Both the position numbers and the translations under genes were made by a program. The notes under the pieces were generated by a model. It was not told where the DNA came from. It did not search any database and saw only the letters and a list, made by a program, of their open reading frames with translations. From an uncultured Candidatus Saccharibacteria bacterium (GTDB taxonomy: Bacteria; Patescibacteriota; Saccharimonadia; Saccharimonadales; UBA4665): 64,000 bases of DNA. Shown here piece by piece: positions 12,623 through 42,708 of this stretch (positions are counted from its first letter, which is position 1; each line of letters opens with the position of its first letter). The stretch lies in assembly GCA_963835055.1 (NCBI GenBank), contig CAWIDU010000001.1:124182-188181 (forward strand). Reading direction: 5' to 3'.

Positions 12623-12751
12623 AACTAGTTTTATTGTATGCCAGCCAGTTTTGAAAAGGAAATCAGCGGCCGGTGCATAACTTCTTGACAGCCAGAGTAA
12701 GATTGTTATGCTTAGACTAGTTCTTCAAAATTAAAATTGCAGAAAGCAAAC

Positions 12752-14830
12752 GTGAAATTACTGAAGCTCAACCGACAGGGCTTTTCGCACGATATTATGT
12801 TGGTTGTTTTCGTAGTCATCTTTGCCGTTGTCGGCGTCGGTTATATAGTGGCCGGCCATGCCGCCGAAGTCGCCCCGGATCTCGGCGTCAACACCGCCAA
12901 CGGCGCTAGTTGCGCTGGTGGCTTGAGTGGCTGGGCATCTGAAGGTCTATCTAGCAGCTCAGAAGTTATCAATATTTATGTTTATGCCAATGGGGCGCCC
13001 GGCAATCCGGCCAATACTGGTAGTGGTACTTTTGTCGGTGAAACTAACAATGGTGGGCATGGTTATCCGGCCACTAACCCGAGCTGGTCAATGGCTATAC
13101 CGGCCCAGTTTCAATATCAAACAACTACCTATTATATTTACGCCATTAATCAAGGTGGCACAGAGACCGGCTCTGGCGTTGGTGGGTCAATTTACGGCGC
13201 TGACCCGATTACTTTGTCGGCCTGTGCTACCCCTCCACCCAGTCCGTCGGCGCCGCCGGTGCTTGGCATAAATTCGGCTTCTTGCAGTGGCGGCCTGAGT
13301 GGCTGGGCCTCGGCCGACCTATCTAGCAGCACGGAAGTTGTTAAGATTGATGTCTATGCCAATGGGGCGCCGGGCAATCCGGCCAACACCGGCAGCGGTA
13401 CTTTTGTCGGCGAGACAACGAATGGCGGGCACGGTTATCCAGCTTATAACCCAAGTTGGTCAATGGCTATACCGGCCCAGTTCCAAACCTCCAATAACAC
13501 TTTTTATATCTATGCCGTAAACCAAGCCGGGGTAGCCACCGGACCAGCTGGTGGTGGTGTCAGTGGCAGCGGCAATGTTTACGGCCCCGACCCAGTAACT
13601 ACGACTGCTTGCGTCACGGCGAGTACTGGTGGCGGCAGCAGTGGCAGCACAACTAGCAACACTGGATCGGGCAGTGGTTCCAGCTCCACCAAAAGCGGAT
13701 CCGGCAGCAGTGGTAGTGGAGGCAGTTTGGACGGCACGACTGGCGGCACGAAAGCCGGCAGTAGCGACAGCGGTTTGGACAGCACTACTGGCGGCACAAC
13801 GGCAACAGGTGCTAGTAGCAACACTGGCGGTAAGACTGCCAGTGGTTCCAGCGGCGGCCAAGCCACCGTTAAATCCAAGAGTCTGAGTACTACTATCGCC
13901 CAGGATACCATTTGCCACATCCCGGGTTTAAGCTCTGTTCTCAAGAGCCTTTGTACCCGGACCCAAGTCGTCCAGGAAACCACCAACTTCGTTGGCAAAG
14001 CCGTAATTGACGGCTACTATGGCCTTAAATCACGCCCCGTAAAGACTACTGGCCTCGGCGGAGGCGGTCAATCGACGGGTATCCCAACTGGCCAGCAATG
14101 GATAGCTTCCGGCTATAAAGCGCTGCCTAATTACTACTATGTTCAAGGCTGGCAGAACGCTTTGGCAACCGGAGTATCGGCCGAATTAACGCAAAACGAT
14201 CCGAAACTGGCGGCTTTTAACACCACTTCCGGCGACCATTCATTGATGCAGATAGCTATCCTCGCGCCAAGCGGTCAGGATGACGTGGAATTTGGCTGGA
14301 TAGTTGACGACTATTCGGCTGGTATGAGCGACAAAAAGCCGCATCTTTTCGTCTACGCCGAGCAAAACGGCTACAACAGCGGCAACGACTGTTACAACAG
14401 CTGTGGTTACGTACCGATCCCCAACAGTTTGAACTTGCAGCCTGGCGATAACGTTAACATTGATTCGTCAGCTCAGTATGCCATTCAGTACGTCGCCGGT
14501 GTTTGGCAGATTGTTTATAACGGTGTTGAGCTTGGCTACATTCCTGGATCGTACTGGTCACAAGCTAGTAATAATCCTGTTAACTTCACCTTTGGCGCAG
14601 ATGAAGGCGCCTGGGGTGAAGTTTACACTCAGACACCGAAATTTTGCAGCCAGATGGGCACCGGTATTATGGGACTAGACAAAGGGTCTGCTATGATTAG
14701 CAACTTTAACCTCGTAGGAGCGGGGGTGGCGCCAAACTTCAGTCCGGTATTGGCCAGTAATCCAACGGCCTGGAACCTTGGCTTGCCCACCAATACTTCA
14801 TTCACCCTTGGTGGTCCGGGGCAGTGTTAA
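12752..14830 (+). CDS. Secreted protein: 'KLNRQGFSHD' signal, two tandem 124-aa repeats, G/S/T linker, C-terminal neprosin (DUF239)-like peptidase domain
   Basis: ORF 12737..14830 starts with TTG; I prefer the GTG at 12752, giving MKLLKLNRQGFSHD. The C-terminal DHSLMQIAI...VEFGWIVD...PHLFVYAEQNGYNSGNDCYNSCGYVP...WQIVYNGVELGYIPGSYW...GAWGEVY fits the neprosin/DUF239 pattern. Confidence 0.85.
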   Translation: MKLLKLNRQGFSHDIMLVVFVVIFAVVGVGYIVAGHAAEVAPDLGVNTANGASCAGGLSGWASEGLSSSSEVINIYVYANGAPGNPANTGSGTFVGETNNGGHGYPATNPSWSMAIPAQFQYQTTTYYIYAINQGGTETGSGVGGSIYGADPITLSACATPPPSPSAPPVLGINSASCSGGLSGWASADLSSSTEVVKIDVYANGAPGNPANTGSGTFVGETTNGGHGYPAYNPSWSMAIPAQFQTSNNTFYIYAVNQAGVATGPAGGGVSGSGNVYGPDPVTTTACVTASTGGGSSGSTTSNTGSGSGSSSTKSGSGSSGSGGSLDGTTGGTKAGSSDSGLDSTTGGTTATGASSNTGGKTASGSSGGQATVKSKSLSTTIAQDTICHIPGLSSVLKSLCTRTQVVQETTNFVGKAVIDGYYGLKSRPVKTTGLGGGGQSTGIPTGQQWIASGYKALPNYYYVQGWQNALATGVSAELTQNDPKLAAFNTTSGDHSLMQIAILAPSGQDDVEFGWIVDDYSAGMSDKKPHLFVYAEQNGYNSGNDCYNSCGYVPIPNSLNLQPGDNVNIDSSAQYAIQYVAGVWQIVYNGVELGYIPGSYWSQASNNPVNFTFGADEGAWGEVYTQTPKFCSQMGTGIMGLDKGSAMISNFNLVGAGVAPNFSPVLASNPTAWNLGLPTNTSFTLGGPGQC
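12911..13620 (+). repeat. Tandem in-frame duplication, period 372 nt (124 aa), two copies
   Basis: C(A/S)GGLSGWAS...VYANGAPGNPANTGSGTFVGET.NGGHGYPA.NPSWSMAIPAQFQ...YIYA.NQ.G appears twice. The Cys codons at 12911 and 13283 mark the period. Confidence 0.9.
13617..13875 (+). repeat. Low-complexity Gly/Ser/Thr-rich linker coding region
   Basis: Translation is TGGGSSGSTTSNTGSGSGSSSTKSGSGSSGSGGS...GGKTASGSSGG. Confidence 0.85.
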
Positions 14831-14831
14831 T

Positions 14832-15239
14832 ATGAAACTACTTATGCCACGGCGCAAATTATCAGAGCAAGGTTTCGAACATCTTAGTATGCTGCTGTTA
14901 ACGATGGTGATCGTCGTCATTGTCGGCGTTTTCCTGGCTGTCAGCCATCGGTCAAATAATAGTTGTACCGGTCAAACTTGGGCACTCAATTCTAACGGAC
15001 AATGTGTAATGTATGCCCAGCAGCTGGCTAATGCTTATTTCTCGAAAGCCGCACCGCTACCGATGGACGGCAATTACAGCGCCCAGACCGTTGGTCTGGT
15101 CAAGAACTTCCAGTCAGCCATGAACCTTACGGCTAGCGGTACTGTTGACGCCAAGACCTGGGGCAAATTATGTTCCACCACCAAAACCAGCCCCAACCTC
15201 TATGGTTCTTGGGCGGCGGCTAAAGCTGCCGGCTGTTAA
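14832..15239 (+). CDS. Small secreted protein with a peptidoglycan-binding (PG_binding_1-like) domain and a 'KLSEQGFEH' signal
   Basis: ATG at 14832, 1 nt after the upstream stop. MKLLMPRRKLSEQGFEHLSMLLLTMVIVVIVGVFLAVSH. DGNYSAQTVGLVKNFQSAMNLTASGTVDAKTWGKL matches the PG-binding repeat. Confidence 0.75.
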   Translation: MKLLMPRRKLSEQGFEHLSMLLLTMVIVVIVGVFLAVSHRSNNSCTGQTWALNSNGQCVMYAQQLANAYFSKAAPLPMDGNYSAQTVGLVKNFQSAMNLTASGTVDAKTWGKLCSTTKTSPNLYGSWAAAKAAGC

Positions 15240-17019
15240 TCACGTTTCAGTAAAACAGTGAAAGCTTCGGCCGGCAGGTCGACGCGGCCAAATCTTTTTA
15301 ATCTTTTCTTGCCCTTGGCTTGCTTGGCCAGGACCTTCTTTTTGCGCGAGACATCACCGCCGTATAGTCCGGTCGTTACGTCTTTGCGGTAGGCACTAAT
15401 GTCTTCGCGGGCGATAAATTTGCCGCCAATGGCCGCTTGCAGGCTGACCTGGAAATTCTGGCGCGGGATGATATCTTTCAATTTTTCAACAGTGTTGTGG
15501 CCCAGGGATTGAGCTTCGCTGCGGTGCACCATAATACTTAGCGCGCTAACCATGTCGCCGGCGACGTAGAAATCAAGGCGTACTAAATCTTCGGCTCGAT
15601 AATCGGCCAGTTCATAATTAAATGAACCGTAGCCGCTGGTCAGGCTTTTGAGCTGGTCATAAAAATCAGTCAGCAGGTTGGCAAGCGGCGCTTCGAAACT
15701 AACCAGCGCTTGCTTGTCGACATAGCTGAGGTTAGTCTGACGGCCGCGCTTGCCGCTAATTAGCTGGATGACGCCGCCAACGTAAGCCTGGGGCACGACG
15801 ATTTCGCCGTTGATCCACGGTTCGCGGATTTCCTTGATTTTCGCCGGGTCGGGCAAGTCGGCGGCACTCTTGATATCCAGCTCTTCCCCATTTAGCAAAA
15901 CCACTTGGTAATCGGTCGATGGGTTGGTGACCAGCAGGTCGAGGTTGTATTCGCGCTCTAACCTTTCGCGGACGATGTCCATATGTAACAGGCCAAGGAA
16001 ACCAATTCGGACGCCAAATCCCAGGACCGGCGAATTCTCCGGTGCGAATTGCAGAGCCGAATCGCTGAGCTGAAAGTTTTTCGATGGCGTCTTTTAATTC
16101 CTGGTACTGCTCGTTGGATTCCGGGAAGAAGCCGGCATAGACGAACGGCTGGACGTTCTTGTAGCCGGGCAAAGGTTGGTGGGCTGATTTGGCCACCAAA
16201 GTCACAGTGTCGCCGACTTTGGCCTCGCGGGTGGATTTCAAATTCGTGACGATATAGCCGATTTCGCCGGCTTGTAACTTGGTGCCAGGTGTCATTTCTG
16301 GCGTCAGGGCGCCGACTTCCAGAGCGATGCCGCTGAGCCGAGGTGGCCATCATTTTAATCTGGCGAATTTTTGGCAATTTCGCCGTCAATCACCCGGAGG
16401 TACAGAATTACGCCGCGGTAATCATCATAATAAGAGTCGAAAATCAGCGCCCGGGTTTCTGGTTTTTCGGAAAACTTGGGTGCTGGGATATCGCTGACAA
16501 TTCTTTCCAGAAACTTCTCCACGCCCTGCCCGGTTTTGGCCGAAATATGCAAGATTTCCTCGGGCTTACAATTTAGAAGGCTAATAATTTCGGCACTGAC
16601 TCGCTCGACGTTAGCCGCCGGCAGGTCAATTTTATTGAGGACTGGAATCAGTCGTCAGGTTGGCGGCCATCGCCAGATAAACATTGGCCAGCGTCTGGGC
16701 CTGGATGCCCTGGGTGGCGTCGACCACCAGCAGCGCGCCTTCACAGGCCTGCAAGGCTGCGCGAAACTTCATAGCTGAAGTCGACGTGGCCGGGCGTGTC
16801 GATTAGATTGAATTCGTAATCCCGGTATTTCATGCGCACCGGCGCCAGCTTAATGGTAATGCCCTTCTCGCGCTCCAGGTCCATCTTGTCTAGCAGCTGG
16901 GCTTTCATGTCGCGCTTGGCGACGGTGCCGGTCAACTCCAGCAAGCGGTCGGCCAGCGTCGACTTGCCATGGTCAATGTGCGCGATAATACAAAAGTTGC
17001 GGATGTGGTCTTGTTGCAT
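15236..17019 (-). pseudogene. lepA: Elongation factor 4 (LepA) broken by about five single-nucleotide insertions
   Basis: LepA-like translation is spread over ORFs 16741..17019, an unlisted frame, 16355..16552, 15958..16389, 15756..16295 and 15236..15982. The junctions lie near 16748, 16653, 16363, 16331 and 16064. Confidence 0.9.
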
Positions 17020-17147
17020 GTCCTGACATTATAAAGCCTACCCGAGGGAAAGCTGCCTAAAAGATTGACAAAGGTGTTAGTTTTCTGTAAACCTTTAAGC
17101 ATAAATGTAATTAAAATTAATGACTACAAAAAGCAAAAAGAGAGCAT

Positions 17148-19589
17148 ATGGAACCAACTAATTCCGACCAACCGCACGGAGATAATGTTATTGCGTCAGA
17201 ACCGCCTAAAACTAAAAAGCTATCATTCAACAATTCTATCTGGAAAAAGCCCCAGTTTTTCGCAGTTGTATTACTTGTAGCTGTGGTTGGGGTTTATGTT
17301 GTGGTTAGAAGCTTCGCTTCAACCGTAGCTGAGACCAATGTCTGGAATACGACTGCCGAATGGAATGCCGGCACCCTCAGCAACGTGGCTGTCGCCAATA
17401 ACGCGGTTTCGCTGGCGGCTTCGAGCAATGTAACACCGCCGCCGCCCAATCCCACTCCTACCACCAACCTAGCCCTCAACCGTCCAGTGGTTGCCTCATC
17501 AATTCAGAATGGGAATTTTGCCGGCGCGAATTACTATTTCCCGGCCGCCAATGTCAATGACGGCAATACCGCCACCCGTTGGAGCTCTAACTATTATCTG
17601 AATCCTACCGCCAGCCAGATAAGCTATGCGAATAACCAGTGGATCTACGTCGATCTGGGAGCAACTTACAATGTCAACGAAGTTAAACTCAATTGGGAGG
17701 CAGCTTACGGCCAGGCTTACCAAATCCAAGTCAGTAATGATGCCAAGAACTGGACGACCATTTATAACACCACCACCGGCACCGGTGGTGTTAATGATTT
17801 GACCGGTTTAACTGGCACCGGGCGCTATGTCAGGATGCTCGGTGTTAAACGCGGTACCCAATGGGGTTACTCACTATGGGAAATGGGCGTCTATGGAACA
17901 GTGGCCTCCACACCGACGTCAGACCTGGCTCTTAATAAGCCAGTGACGGTTTCCTCGACCCAAGACGGAACCTATGGTGGGGGCTTCTACAATGAACCAG
18001 CCTCCAACGCTGTTGACGGTAATACTTCTACTCGCTGGAGCAGTAACTACAGTGACCCGCAATGGATCTATGTCGACCTAGGTGCAACTTACAATATCAG
18101 TGAGGTAAAGCTCAATTGGGAGACAGCCTATGGTAAGGCTTACCAAATCCAAGTCAGTAATGATGCCACTAACTGGACTACTATCTATAGCACCACTACC
18201 GGCACTGGTGGTATTAATGACTTAACCGGTCTTAGTGGTTCTGGCAGATATGTCAGGATGTACGGTACCGTTCGTGGCACAGTTAATGGTAACCAGTGGG
18301 GCTACTCACTGTGGGAGATGAGTGTTTATGGGACGCCGCCAGCCGCGAGCACATCGGTTCACGCGAATACTACCCCCGTTTATAACTCTGCTGGTACCAT
18401 TACCCTCGGCTTCGACGCTGGTAGTACAGTTAGCTGGACTGGGCTGACGCCGGTGGCCACGACACCTTCCGGCACTAGCATTACCTATCAAGCCCGGACC
18501 AGTTCTGACAATTCAACTTGGTCGGCCTGGAGTAGCAATGTGGCCAGCCTAGCCGGCAGCCGGTACATACAGATCCAGGCCAGTCTTGGCACTACTAATA
18601 CGGCTATCACGCCCGTGTTGTCCAGTCTGACACTTGGTTACAATATTACCGTTGCCGCGCCGACTGCCTCGCTGCAAGTAGGCTCACCGGCTTCTAGCAG
18701 CGCCACTATTACTTCTGGGCAAAGCACCCAATTAACTTGGAGTTCTACCAACGCTACCAGCTGTACGGCGTCCGGTGCGTGGAGTGGCAACCAAGCTACA
18801 TCCGGTTCAGCTACAATTTCGCCAACGGCTACTTCTACCTATGGCTTAGCTTGTAGCGGCGCGGGCGGCACATCTAGTACAAGTTCAGTAACCGTTACAG
18901 TTAATAGCACCACCGGCGGCACAGCCCCGGCATTGCCCTCTGGTGTCACAGGAACCTTCGTCGGCAGCGAAACTGGTGCCCAGCTATATGCAGATTCAGG
19001 TTGGCAGAAGTCCACCAACGGCAATCTGACGCCATCATCGGGTTGTGCGGCCACCTCAGCCACGATAACGGTTTCGGGCACCTATATGGATTTGTACACG
19101 CCGGCATCTCATGCCTGGGACTGTGCCGGTATTGAGTCGAACGCTACCGTCGAACCGGGCCATATCTATCAGCTCCGGGAAAATATTCCGGCGGCGGCCA
19201 ATGGCTACATAGCCGACTATCCTTCCTGGTGGACGACAGATGCTCCGTGGGACAACGAGATTGATATGGCCGAAGAGAATGCTTGGAACTACTCAGTCGT
19301 TCCCCCCGGTGAAATGTGCCTAGACATCCATCTTAACCAGGGTAGCCAGAACACATCTGCTGACTGCCAGACTGAGGCCGGCGGTTGGCAAATCTACACC
19401 TTCGTTTGGAACGCTAACGGTAACGTCACGATGTACTACAACGGCGCCAAGATAGTGCCGGAAGGCGGCCCGACTGCCTCCACCGGGACCAATCAGCACA
19501 TGATACTTTGGAATGACAACACTGGTGGTGTTGGCATGATCAACTCCACCGTCCAGGTTGACTACCTGGCAACCTGGACAACTAACTAG
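17148..19589 (+). CDS. Secreted 813-aa protein: N-terminal anchor, two F5/8 type C (discoidin) domains, S/T-rich Ig-like region, C-terminal GH16-like ConA-fold domain
   Basis: DGNT.TRWSS...QWIYVDLGATYN..EVKLNWE.AYG.AYQIQVSNDA.NWTTIY appears twice. The C-terminal PSWWTTDAPWDNEIDMAEE fits the GH16 ExDxxE motif. Confidence 0.85.
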   Translation: MEPTNSDQPHGDNVIASEPPKTKKLSFNNSIWKKPQFFAVVLLVAVVGVYVVVRSFASTVAETNVWNTTAEWNAGTLSNVAVANNAVSLAASSNVTPPPPNPTPTTNLALNRPVVASSIQNGNFAGANYYFPAANVNDGNTATRWSSNYYLNPTASQISYANNQWIYVDLGATYNVNEVKLNWEAAYGQAYQIQVSNDAKNWTTIYNTTTGTGGVNDLTGLTGTGRYVRMLGVKRGTQWGYSLWEMGVYGTVASTPTSDLALNKPVTVSSTQDGTYGGGFYNEPASNAVDGNTSTRWSSNYSDPQWIYVDLGATYNISEVKLNWETAYGKAYQIQVSNDATNWTTIYSTTTGTGGINDLTGLSGSGRYVRMYGTVRGTVNGNQWGYSLWEMSVYGTPPAASTSVHANTTPVYNSAGTITLGFDAGSTVSWTGLTPVATTPSGTSITYQARTSSDNSTWSAWSSNVASLAGSRYIQIQASLGTTNTAITPVLSSLTLGYNITVAAPTASLQVGSPASSSATITSGQSTQLTWSSTNATSCTASGAWSGNQATSGSATISPTATSTYGLACSGAGGTSSTSSVTVTVNSTTGGTAPALPSGVTGTFVGSETGAQLYADSGWQKSTNGNLTPSSGCAATSATITVSGTYMDLYTPASHAWDCAGIESNATVEPGHIYQLRENIPAAANGYIADYPSWWTTDAPWDNEIDMAEENAWNYSVVPPGEMCLDIHLNQGSQNTSADCQTEAGGWQIYTFVWNANGNVTMYYNGAKIVPEGGPTASTGTNQHMILWNDNTGGVGMINSTVQVDYLATWTTN
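17466..18335 (+). repeat. Tandem duplication of the discoidin-domain coding unit (period 423 nt)
   Basis: The 32-nt string ggcttaccaaatccaagtcagtaatgatgcca is identical at 17714 and 18137. The surrounding protein repeats are about 75-80% identical by eye. Confidence 0.9.
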
Positions 19590-28105: not shown

Positions 28106-28822
28106 TTAGGGATGGGTCAGAATTTCGCGCCACGACAGAATGTTGTAGCCGGCCGTCACTGGGTAGCTCGGCGGCGGGCCGTATTCCAAGTTGTAATCGT
28201 ACTGTGTGGTGTCGTTCAGGAAACCAGTGATGTAGCCGTTGGCGCCGCCGTTGGCGGCGTCACCACAAGGGCTGCCGCCGACCAGCCAGCTCCAGGTCCA
28301 GGTTTGGCGGGTGGCGACCGAGCCGTAAAAAGTCATCGACTGGTTGTTGCCCGTCCAGCCGCGGGCACAGGTAGTTTGCGAGGTGCGATAACCGGCCGGG
28401 TAGTTAGCGCTGTCACCGTTTTCACCGTATTCAACGTTACCGTTTTCAGCCAGCAAGGCGCCGTCGACTTCGTAATTGAACGAGCCGCTGCTATAACCGC
28501 TGGCCGAGGCCGGCGCGTAGGGCGCGATGAAGATCGAATCTTCGGCCACCAGGCCGATAGCGTCGCTACCGTTCTTGGTGCTGTACAGCAATGGGCCGGC
28601 GATGACGATATCTGTGTTGTTGCTGGTTGCCAGCCGGCCGGAGGCAATTGTTAGCCGGCCGTGGAATGTCGGGTTGCTGAGCACCCAGACATTGTCCTCG
28701 ACGAAAACCACGCCCGAGGGCGGCAGGCTAATCCCGGTGGCCACGGTGGTAGTCGTCAGGGCCGAGGTGTACGGCGTCAACTGGTCATTTTCGCGTTGAC
28801 TTTTACAGGTCATAGGTGCCAT
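28106..28822 (-). CDS. Pilus-associated protein (possibly the C-terminal part of the 28803..29687 gene)
   Basis: 238 aa, G/S/T/N-rich, beta-rich looking. Overlaps the upstream ORF by 20 nt in the frame expected for a 1-nt insertion. Confidence 0.6.
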   Translation of the reverse strand: MAPMTCKSQRENDQLTPYTSALTTTTVATGISLPPSGVVFVEDNVWVLSNPTFHGRLTIASGRLATSNNTDIVIAGPLLYSTKNGSDAIGLVAEDSIFIAPYAPASASGYSSGSFNYEVDGALLAENGNVEYGENGDSANYPAGYRTSQTTCARGWTGNNQSMTFYGSVATRQTWTWSWLVGGSPCGDAANGGANGYITGFLNDTTQYDYNLEYGPPPSYPVTAGYNILSWREILTHP

Positions 28823-29687
28823 TGGTGTTCAAGATAATCAGGTAGCCCTTGGTGGTGCTAAAACTGCTGCTGAGCTCCGGAATGTAGGCATTGGTACGGG
28901 TATTGGGCACTTGGCTGCAGGGATTGCTGCCATTGTTGAGCGAAGAAGTGCTGGAGTAGTCGCCGAAGGCAACCTTTTTCATGGTGCAGAGGCTGCTGCT
29001 GATTTGGTTGAAGTCAATGCTTGATGTCGGATAAATCCAGTCGCTCTTGGAACGCGTGTTGCAGTTGACCGGCGAGGTGACCGACGTGTTGCACCAGACA
29101 CCGTTCTCGCTGGTTGAACCATCGCCGCCGAGCTCCACTGACGGCACGTAGCTGCTGTTGGCACTGCTGACGGTCGAAGTGTTGGCGCCGTCCATCCTGA
29201 CCCCCTGATTGGAGAAGACCGGCCCATCGGCTGTTTCGGTGTTGCCGAACCACAGTGCCGAGTCGGAGACCACGCCGTAGCTGGCGAAGGACGGTGAGCC
29301 GAGCTGGGCCTGGACAGTGCGCGAAATCGACGAGTTGGCGGCCGTGCCGATGGAGCGCACGGTGGCGATGGTCGAGCCAGCTGCCGGCGGGCTGATGTAC
29401 AGGGTGTAGGTACCTTCGTTGACGCCGTTGGTATCAATGTACTGGTGGACGTACGGACCGTAGCCGTAGGTGCCGGGTGTCGTAGGCGTCGATTGGCCGT
29501 CCTTGTAATCGGTCGAGTTGTGGTTGAGATGCCACAGGTAATAATTCAGGCCGGCTTCGGCGATATTGAAAGCCTGTTGGCTTTTGACGGTGTTAGCGAC
29601 CACCGAAAAATTGGTCAGCGTCACCTCGATAACAGCCGAGGCCAGGATCGAAAAAGCGATTATGACTGATAGAACGGCTGGTATCAT
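28803..29687 (-). CDS. PilX-like minor pilin / pilus tip-associated protein
   Basis: N-terminal hydrophobic helix followed by SQQAFNIAEAGLNYYLWHL (PilX_N-like A-E-A-G-L motif). Confidence 0.7.
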   Translation of the reverse strand: MIPAVLSVIIAFSILASAVIEVTLTNFSVVANTVKSQQAFNIAEAGLNYYLWHLNHNSTDYKDGQSTPTTPGTYGYGPYVHQYIDTNGVNEGTYTLYISPPAAGSTIATVRSIGTAANSSISRTVQAQLGSPSFASYGVVSDSALWFGNTETADGPVFSNQGVRMDGANTSTVSSANSSYVPSVELGGDGSTSENGVWCNTSVTSPVNCNTRSKSDWIYPTSSIDFNQISSSLCTMKKVAFGDYSSTSSLNNGSNPCSQVPNTRTNAYIPELSSSFSTTKGYLIILNTNGTYDL

Positions 29688-30271
29688 AGGTTGGTTTTCC
29701 TGTTTCTGAGACTGACCGTGATGTTCAGTTGCTGGCCGGTCTTGGTATGGCTGCCCGGCTCGGCCAGGTTGACGCCGATTTCGACAACGCTGTGCTCGTC
29801 GCTGAGCGGCAGGGTCAGCGCCGTACCCGAAGCGTCATAATAGGTGAACAAATTGCTGCCGCTCGGCTGATAATAATTGGAAATTATAGTGTAGGTTTTC
29901 TCGGAGGCGGTAATCGGCGAGCCAGTCGGCGGATTGGCCGTCATCGGTGTGACATCGGCCATCAGCGCTGTACCATTGGCGCTGAGATAGTAATGGACAA
30001 TTGAAACATAGGTGTCAGCCGGCGAGAAGTAGGCGTAAACACTGAGATCATTGGACGATTCCGAAATAATATCGGTCAAGCCACGCAGCACTTGAGCCAC
30101 GCGCTGCGATTCGCTAGCTAGCTCGGTGAAATTGCTGGCGTCAGACTGGTAATGCGTATAAAGCGTCAAGTTATTGGTGAAAAAGGTGCCGAAAACGATG
30201 AACAGCAACACCGACAAAATGATGACTACCAGCAGTTCGACCAACGTGAAACCGGATTCAGTTCGTGACAA
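29684..30271 (-). CDS. Type IV pilin-like (pseudopilin) protein
   Basis: Prepilin signal MSRTESG/FTLVELLVVIIL (G-FTLxE). Confidence 0.85.
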   Translation of the reverse strand: MSRTESGFTLVELLVVIILSVLLFIVFGTFFTNNLTLYTHYQSDASNFTELASESQRVAQVLRGLTDIISESSNDLSVYAYFSPADTYVSIVHYYLSANGTALMADVTPMTANPPTGSPITASEKTYTIISNYYQPSGSNLFTYYDASGTALTLPLSDEHSVVEIGVNLAEPGSHTKTGQQLNITVSLRNRKTNL

Positions 30272-37438: not shown

Positions 37439-37858
37439 TCAACCCAGGACTGGAAATGCTTCTGATATGGCTGGTAGCTGGGCGCTGGCCGGCGGCGGCT
37501 GGACCGGGTTAGGCAGGTCGGCTGTGTAGCTCAGCGCCACGCTGGCCGGCACGATCAGCTCTTGTTCGCCAGCAGCCCCCAGACCGAAATTCTGCCGGGC
37601 CGCCAGCTCCAGATACTGGTTGCTGTTGTAATAACTGTTTTGCAGCGACAGATTGGTGTTCTTGAGCTGTTGGATATTGTTCTGCTGCTTGAGCACCGAA
37701 ATTTGTTTCTGCAAGCCGTAGTTGGTCTGGATAGTTTTGATGCCGCTCCAACTGATCAGCAGGACGACAATCACGAACAGCAACTGCCCGACGAAGCGGA
37801 CGTCGTTGAGGCGCTGCAAGAACGCTAGAACCTTTTCGATGTACTTTTTTATTTTCAT
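37439..37858 (-). CDS. FtsB/DivIC-like septum formation initiator
   Basis: N-terminal TM segment, coiled coil (ISVLKQQNNIQQLKNTNLSLQ), then YLELAARQNFGLGAAGEQELIV. Confidence 0.7.
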   Translation of the reverse strand: MKIKKYIEKVLAFLQRLNDVRFVGQLLFVIVVLLISWSGIKTIQTNYGLQKQISVLKQQNNIQQLKNTNLSLQNSYYNSNQYLELAARQNFGLGAAGEQELIVPASVALSYTADLPNPVQPPPASAQLPAISEAFPVLG

Positions 37859-41948: not shown

Positions 41949-42708
41949 CTAAGTCCTCAGCCCCCGGCCAGTTAAATCGATGAAAACGTCTTCCAGATTG
42001 GCTTGCTCGACCCGTTGGTCTTTCTTGAAACCGCGTTTCAGCAGCTGCTTAATCAGATTGTGGGGCGTGTCGAGGGCGATGATTTTGCCGTTGTCCATAA
42101 TGGCCACCCGATCACACAGAACTTCGGCTTCTTCCATGTAATGAGTCGTCATGATGACCGTCACGCCCTTGTCACGGACTTTTTTGGTCAGATCCCAGAG
42201 ATTCCGGCGGGCCTGGGGGTCGAGTCCGGTGGTCGGCTCGTCGAGGAAGAAGACTTTCGGCTGGTGGACGAGGGCGGCGGCGATGCTCAGGCGCTGGCGC
42301 TGGCCGCCAGATAGCTGCTCAGCGAAATTCTCGGTCTGTTTGCCTAGTTGTACATCGTCCAGAAACTCCTGGACATTGACCCGCTCACCATAAGCCGCGG
42401 CGAACATTTCAATGATTTCGGTGATTTTCTGTTTGTCTTGGAAGGCTGGCGACTGGGGTTGGACGCCGATGATTTTCTTGACCTCATTGGGGCTGCTCGG
42501 CAACATTTAACCCGTTAAGGGTGATTGTACCGCCATCAATTGGTCGCATAGTCTCGATCATCTCTAGCGTCGTGGTCTTGCCGGCGCCGTTGGGGCCGAG
42601 AATGCCGAAAATTTCGCCTTTTTGGACCTCGAAGGAAATGCCGTCAACGGCGACTTTGTCACCATAGACCTTTTTCAGATCTTTGACTTTTAGAATTGCA
42701 TCAGCCAT
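41949..42708 (-). pseudogene. ABC transporter ATP-binding protein interrupted by one single-nucleotide insertion
   Basis: The N-fragment 42484..42708 carries Walker A (GPNGAGKTT). The C-fragment 41949..42506 carries LSGGQRQRL and FFLDEPTTGLD. The frame break lies near 42498-42503. Confidence 0.85.

Follow-up and report, generated by a model that had tools for sequence, protein, structure and literature searches.

The window, the whole 64,000-nt stretch of DNA from an uncultured Candidatus Saccharibacteria bacterium that was analysed here, contains the following gene:

15236-17019, minus strand: lepA (translation elongation factor 4), full length, in six frame segments

The gene opens with an ATG at 17019 and closes with a TAA at 15238-15236 on the minus strand, and at 1784 nt it is 5 nt longer than the 1779 nt found in relatives. 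Under translation table 11, it falls into ORFs of 92, 46, 65, 179 and 248 aa, and the longest open frame over the match to the LepA C-terminal domain measures 285 aa, compared with 593-669 aa in 28 of 29 relatives. A preliminary description of this DNA had called the neighbours of lepA intact. This holds for the three ORFs next to lepA (12737-14830, 14778-15239 and 17148-19589), but elsewhere in the window an ABC-transporter gene is split near 42492. The ORFs at 12737-14830 and 17148-19589, which flank lepA, are large, intact and encoded on the plus strand, and their products are apparently secreted. One of the flanking ORF products (697 aa) has internally repeated segments and no Pfam match, and the other (813 aa) features two F5/8 type C (NedA-like galactose-binding) domains.

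The interrupted gene is a member of the LepA/EF4 family (TIGR01393) by its profile match, its C-terminal domain and its G-domain. Four pieces of lepA match TIGR01393 collinearly (profile positions 2-92, 125-219, 234-317 and 318-594, with 155, 116.1, 90 and 360.7 bits, respectively); each piece alone scores below the cut-off of 533.9 bits, whereas their rough sum of 722 bits exceeds it. PF06421 (LepA_C) is matched over profile positions 2-107 of 107 with 139.6 bits and follows a PF00679 (EFG_C) match of 71 bits, while PF00009 (GTP_EFTU) is matched by the first piece (119.1 bits) and by the second (29.3 bits). The translation also includes AHIDHGKST and DTPGH, which we take to be the G1 and G3 motifs. 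The window gene shares with LepA/EF4 proteins a collinear match to profile positions 2-594, the G-domain and the C-terminal domain specific to LepA, and differs from them by five frame interruptions as deposited. The deposited sequence lacks the single uninterrupted frame of about 592-600 codons, and this interruption is a property of the deposited sequence that is attributed to sequence error.

The preliminary description had proposed that lepA carries five single-base insertions and no deletions, and three lines of evidence agree with this. When intact LepA proteins from 12 relatives were aligned to the window by tblastn, the gene followed the frame path -3 > -1 > -2 > -3 > -1 > -2, with exactly one base left over at each junction that could be placed exactly. 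One of these relatives (L002) derives from the unpublished genome G001, and the frame path is the same with the other 11. DNA alignments of lepA were made with all 12 relatives, with nine closer metagenome loci and with L089 alone, the metagenome locus with the best C-terminal LepA protein match. Each of the three alignments contained five columns with a base only in this genome, and none contained a column with a gap in this genome alone. The third line of evidence is the gene length itself, with its excess of 5 nt. The positions of the insertions were refined using L089 DNA and the closest intact proteins, P0001 and P0002 (93% identical), which gave the following sites:

16748-16754, minus strand: insertion 1, extra T at 16753/16754, or G at 16748/16749; column unique to this genome
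16649-16652, minus strand: insertion 2, most simply A at 16652; column unique to this genome
16361-16367, minus strand: insertion 3, extra C at 16362/16363 in TCG-CC-AG
16332-16336, minus strand: insertion 4, extra C at 16332 or G at 16333
16070-16075, minus strand: insertion 5, extra G at 16070 (TCA-G-CTCAGCGAT)

At insertion 1, removal of the T at 16753/16754 restores the SLQACE of P0001 and P0002, whereas removal of the G at 16748/16749, the base chosen in the preliminary description, yields SLAACE. For insertion 2, tblastn leaves the single base 16652 between frames and no residues are lost. Without one C, the region of insertion 3 encodes IAKNSQIKMM as in P0002, and the DNA of another locus (L091) reads TCGCAG here. 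At insertion 4, P0002 reads TSAQGIALEVG and the L089 DNA reads CCCA-CGGCATCGCT. At insertion 5, the L089 DNA is the same over the 3 nt before and the 20 nt after, save for the G at 16070. Correction of this site joins KLS to LSDSALQ (KLSLSDSALQ), exactly as in P0001 and P0002, and places the insertion 6 nt upstream of the junction first drawn between KLSAQ and DS. An octamer, GCTCAGCG, that two of the insertions were said to follow was indeed found at 16338-16331 and 16070-16063. The two insertions do not both follow it, however: the extra G of insertion 5 is its first base and the extra base of insertion 4 is its sixth or seventh. The octamer occurs 102 times in the genome and lies within 14 nt of only one of the 128 genome-wide frame changes described below. 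The lepA gene of L089 is intact and carries a 60-nt in-frame insertion at codons ~67-86 that is absent from the window and the other relatives and includes short tandem repeats (ATTTGAG twice and AATCCCA repeated).

Comparison with lepA of other genomes, which had been put forward as a check, showed that most relatives have an intact gene. The frame stays open for at least 593 aa in 28 of the 29 relatives with a LepA_C match; in G022 the frame with this domain is 227 aa long, and G018 (61% complete) gave no match. These tallies include the unpublished genomes G001 and G014 and are unchanged without them. Across metagenome loci, 56 of 80 contain an uninterrupted full-length lepA ORF, and many of the other 24 have too little upstream sequence. 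A same-species sibling was sought in metagenome contigs, which may lack records very close to this genome, and in a protein collection, where the best matches to the window LepA reached only 92% (L089) and 95% (P0001 and P0002) identity over the C-terminal 277 aa. Public sequencing runs were searched for window positions 13000-19000, and none was listed. By the names of its closest LepA proteins, the lineage belongs to Candidatus Saccharimonadales.

To read through the interruptions, the pieces of LepA were joined and the junction regions were filled with X (17 X). The resulting protein contains no stop codons, in line with the earlier observation that the segments between breaks are free of in-frame stops. 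It is 92.5% identical to P0001 in an ungapped comparison and 93% identical over 575 tree-alignment columns. The read-through protein groups with P0001 and P0002 (SH-aLRT 99) in a tree of 35 LepA sequences, and its end branch of 0.034 compares with 0.071 and 0.070 for these intact sisters and a median of 0.071. Neither of the two signs of relaxed constraint that were looked for in lepA, in-frame stops and raised amino-acid substitution, was therefore found. As in a programmed +1 ribosomal frameshift of the prfB type, a +1 shift would be required for the full protein, but the window gene differs in having five sites rather than one and no common shift motif. A search for a programmed frameshift in lepA found no conserved shift site, and the frame is uninterrupted in 28 of the 29 relatives.

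The genome comprises 865,209 bp in two contigs (53% G+C) and has a marker completeness of 87.35%, whereas eight same-family relatives with at most 10 contigs (G002, G004, G009-G012, G015 and G017) have a completeness of 95-100%. Frame changes across the genome were counted by ungapped tblastn followed by collinear HSP chaining, where the queries were ORFs of at least 100 aa from G011, an intact one-contig relative (800,000 of its 805,326 bases). Robust events were those with a score of 35 bits or more for each flanking HSP, a query gap of no more than 15 aa and a net length change of no more than 2 nt, and they were deduplicated within 40 nt. The analysis was also run with G012 ORFs as queries, and G011 and G012 were compared with each other as controls:

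G011 ORFs against this genome: 128 robust events in 181,670 aligned aa
G011 ORFs against G012 (control; 693,606 of ~830,000 bases): 1 event in 155,105 aa
G012 ORFs against this genome: 103 events in 171,201 aa
G012 ORFs against G011 (control): 0 events in 163,874 aa

The two sets of events overlap, as 81 of the 103 G012-based events lie at most 40 nt from a G011-based event. The counts are lower bounds, since two lepA insertions 31 nt apart were merged as one 'net +2' event in both runs, and other 'net +2' events may likewise represent pairs of insertions. Gapped tblastn under-counts (lepA appears as one event) because gapped extension crosses short out-of-frame pieces. This genome thus has an excess of frame changes over comparable genomes, with essential genes among those affected, and the damage is assembly-wide rather than specific to lepA (128 and 103 events against 1 and 0 in the controls).

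The G011 queries with the most events were rpoC, rpoB, gyrA, secA and the gene for cytochrome o ubiquinol oxidase subunit I (cyoB), and the other most affected queries encode a ClpB-like chaperone, FtsK, ribosomal protein S1, UvrB and EF-G. When gapped tblastn was used, rpoC, rpoB, gyrA, secA and fusA were each found at a single locus, spread over two or three frames. The genes for RNA polymerase, gyrase and SecA are essential. Because the only copies of rpoB, rpoC, gyrA and secA are broken several times each, the frame changes, taken together, must have arisen as sequence errors rather than in the organism. Within the window, two genes in addition to lepA were associated with a frame change:

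41949-42708, minus strand: ABC-transporter ATPase gene, +1-class frame change near 42492, inside the ABC_tran domain
28109-29702, minus strand: pilin-like (PilX_N) gene, frame change near 28770-28806; a weaker case

The ABC-transporter ATPase gene is split into ORFs at 42484-42708 (74 aa) and 41949-42506 (185 aa), which both match PF00005 (profile positions 2-50 and 56-137), and its frame change was recovered with two independent references. The PilX_N-like gene was identified by an HSP chain to a 536-aa G011 ORF, in frame -1 and then -2 with a net change of -5, and it failed the robust filter. A DivIC-like gene on the minus strand may also shift frame near 37492; its second piece scores only 35 bits, and this case is weaker than those of lepA and the ABC transporter.

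The events are unevenly distributed: among the 76 10-kb bins that have 500 aligned aa or more, 45 are event-free (chi-square 355 on 75 df). Grouping of events at gaps below 3 kb gave 32 groups, 16 of which are single events, while the larger groups extend over 0.2-13 kb. Clusters cross gene borders, for example at 720-729 kb and 766-779 kb, and the densest are all found on contig 1:

720-729 kb: fusA, rpoC and rpoB
385-389 kb: gyrA
478-482 kb: secA
432-434 kb: S1 and IF-2-like genes
627-629 kb: cyoB

Within clusters, the density is approximately one event per 100-200 nt. The lepA gene has five events in ~680 nt (approximately one per 136 nt), while 13 robust events fall within 1.2 kb of cyoB sequence. 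When non-overlapping G011 ORFs were considered, 91 of 126 events (~72%) were net insertions and 35 were net deletions. The shared polarity of the five lepA breaks, to which the preliminary description had drawn attention, is therefore unremarkable, as five insertions out of five would arise with a probability of about 0.19 (0.72^5).

Several sequence contexts were considered as a cause of the events. A homopolymer cause was rejected, as the distribution of the longest run within 8 nt on either side of the 128 events is that of random coding positions. A motif or methylation site was likewise rejected, as even the most frequent k-mer reaches at most about a fifth of 90 well-localised events; CTCGC (8 observed, 1.6 expected), TCGC, GCAGC and CAGC are mildly over-represented near events. 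Local G+C content is 0.563 at events and 0.547 at random aligned positions, a difference too small to explain the patches. The context GACG-A-CTGAT is common to lepA insertion 2 and contig 1 position 627888, which is too weak to constitute a motif. Inside the HSPs of 511 putative real genes, 54 stops were counted; this count is uncleaned, and most of the stops are at HSP ends or in doubtful short ORFs.

We infer, with a probability of roughly 90%, that the five lepA insertions are consensus errors left uncorrected in the deposited assembly rather than mutations of the organism. This reading follows from the scale of the frame changes, the essential genes affected, the clustering of events, the lowered completeness, the lack of signs of decay in lepA and the intact genes of relatives. 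The interruption is almost certainly not a real biological feature, and a genuine loss of lepA is not supported; judged from its sequence, the organism's own gene is most likely intact and functional. The preliminary description had offered local assembly errors as an alternative to decay, and the error part of that suggestion stands, although the errors extend beyond lepA (at least 103-128 frame changes genome-wide). The assembly would contain error patches of a few hundred bases to ~13 kb between long indel-free stretches, and inside these patches single-base indels would occur approximately once per 100-200 nt, with ~70% of them insertions. The lepA gene would sit in one such patch of ~680 nt. 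The patches may consist of error-prone long-read sequence that was left unpolished or that bridges parts which short reads left unresolved.

Noisy long-read sequence is the most likely technical cause of these errors. An insertion bias without homopolymer association would resemble random-insertion long-read errors more than errors of the homopolymer type. Patchy, mostly non-homopolymer, insertion-biased errors suggest noisy long reads that were not covered by short-read polishing or assembly, or a consensus that was disturbed by related strains. As in indel errors of long-read or hybrid assemblies, single-base indels here split conserved genes into adjacent out-of-frame ORFs, essential genes are affected and completeness is lowered despite high contiguity, whereas the patchy rather than uniform distribution differs. 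Indels that fragment genes have been described as a problem in long-read assemblies (PMC12007338, PMC9262707). The events in this genome have no homopolymer association, unlike nanopore indels, which PMC9262707 attributes to homopolymer regions. Indels outside homopolymers do not fit the commonest nanopore-type error, and this counts against the consensus-error reading, as does the mild excess of a few k-mers (CTCGC, GCAGC and TCGC) close to events.

The insertions may instead stem from at least two co-occurring strains whose consensus was collapsed or mis-polished, with reads cross-mapping on conserved genes. This would also be an artefact, and we regard it as a possible but rather doubtful source of the indels. 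It would account for the higher conservation of affected genes, which have 74.5% aa identity to G011 as opposed to 62.0% for unaffected genes, and for the presence of clusters in long conserved genes such as rpoB, rpoC, fusA, gyrA, secA, lepA, uvrB and clpB. However, frame changes are easier to detect in conserved genes, which partly explains why such genes seem to be preferred, and the conserved EF-Tu-like (717-718 kb) and TypA-like (44-46 kb) loci align in one frame. A further alternative is that only the other frame changes are assembly errors, while lepA is a genuine and very recent pseudogene; very recent decay of lepA was one of the two readings in the preliminary description. The lepA gene is dispensable in E. 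coli under laboratory conditions (PMC4245954, PMC4324249), so viability alone cannot decide against this. The three adjacent ORFs are intact, and the lepA cluster is somewhat isolated, with few other events in the first 300 kb of contig 1. Like a bacterial frameshift pseudogene, the window lepA has single-base frameshifting indels in a dispensable gene, but it differs in having no in-frame stops despite five independent indels and in a substitution rate that is not raised, with an end branch half that of its intact sisters. It also differs in that the five events are of one kind and match the assembly-wide error profile. Their spacing (~1 per 136 nt) and insertion polarity equal those of the rpoC, gyrA and secA clusters, which cannot be real, and identical damage is found in essential single-copy genes. 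We consider recent decay of lepA improbable: the gene is also open in 28 of the 29 relatives, its breaks cannot be told apart by spacing or kind from those of essential genes, and it shows no relaxed constraint.

The remaining explanation, that the indels are real and tolerated, would involve wholesale gene decay, or ribosomal frameshifting, quadruplet decoding or transcript editing. The dominance of insertions (91 of 126 events) and the otherwise fully conserved appearance of the interrupted genes are compatible with this, yet 35 of the 126 events are net deletions, no context is shared (even the commonest k-mer is found at about a fifth of sites at most), the events fall only in patches (45 of 76 bins are empty) and, save for one event in G012, the relatives G011 and G012 have none. 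We find this explanation barely credible. A cell in which the only copies of rpoB, rpoC, gyrA and secA are repeatedly broken would not be viable without correction, and we know of no correction mechanism that handles both indel signs at arbitrary sites. Expression of the essential genes by frame restoration, at the level of RNA or the ribosome and at many non-conserved sites, is similarly far-fetched. It would constitute a new kind of pervasive recoding if the indels were real in the DNA and the genes were still expressed.

Under the consensus-error reading, this species-representative genome carries at least ~100-130 frame-breaking errors that are concentrated in patches. They would lead to wrong gene calls, pseudogene counts, completeness estimates and metabolic reconstructions at the affected genes, which include lepA, rpoB, rpoC, gyrA, secA, fusA, cyoB, uvrB, rpsA and an IF-2-like gene. 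Genes that seem missing or decayed here should be given no biological interpretation before the genome is re-polished. A true loss of lepA would be a rare exception among the most conserved bacterial proteins. Within the error cluster that covers the IF-2-like gene, an in-frame stop is present at contig 1 position 433738, inside the GHVDHGKT-LLD motif; this stop could be a substitution error or the result of two nearby compensating indels.
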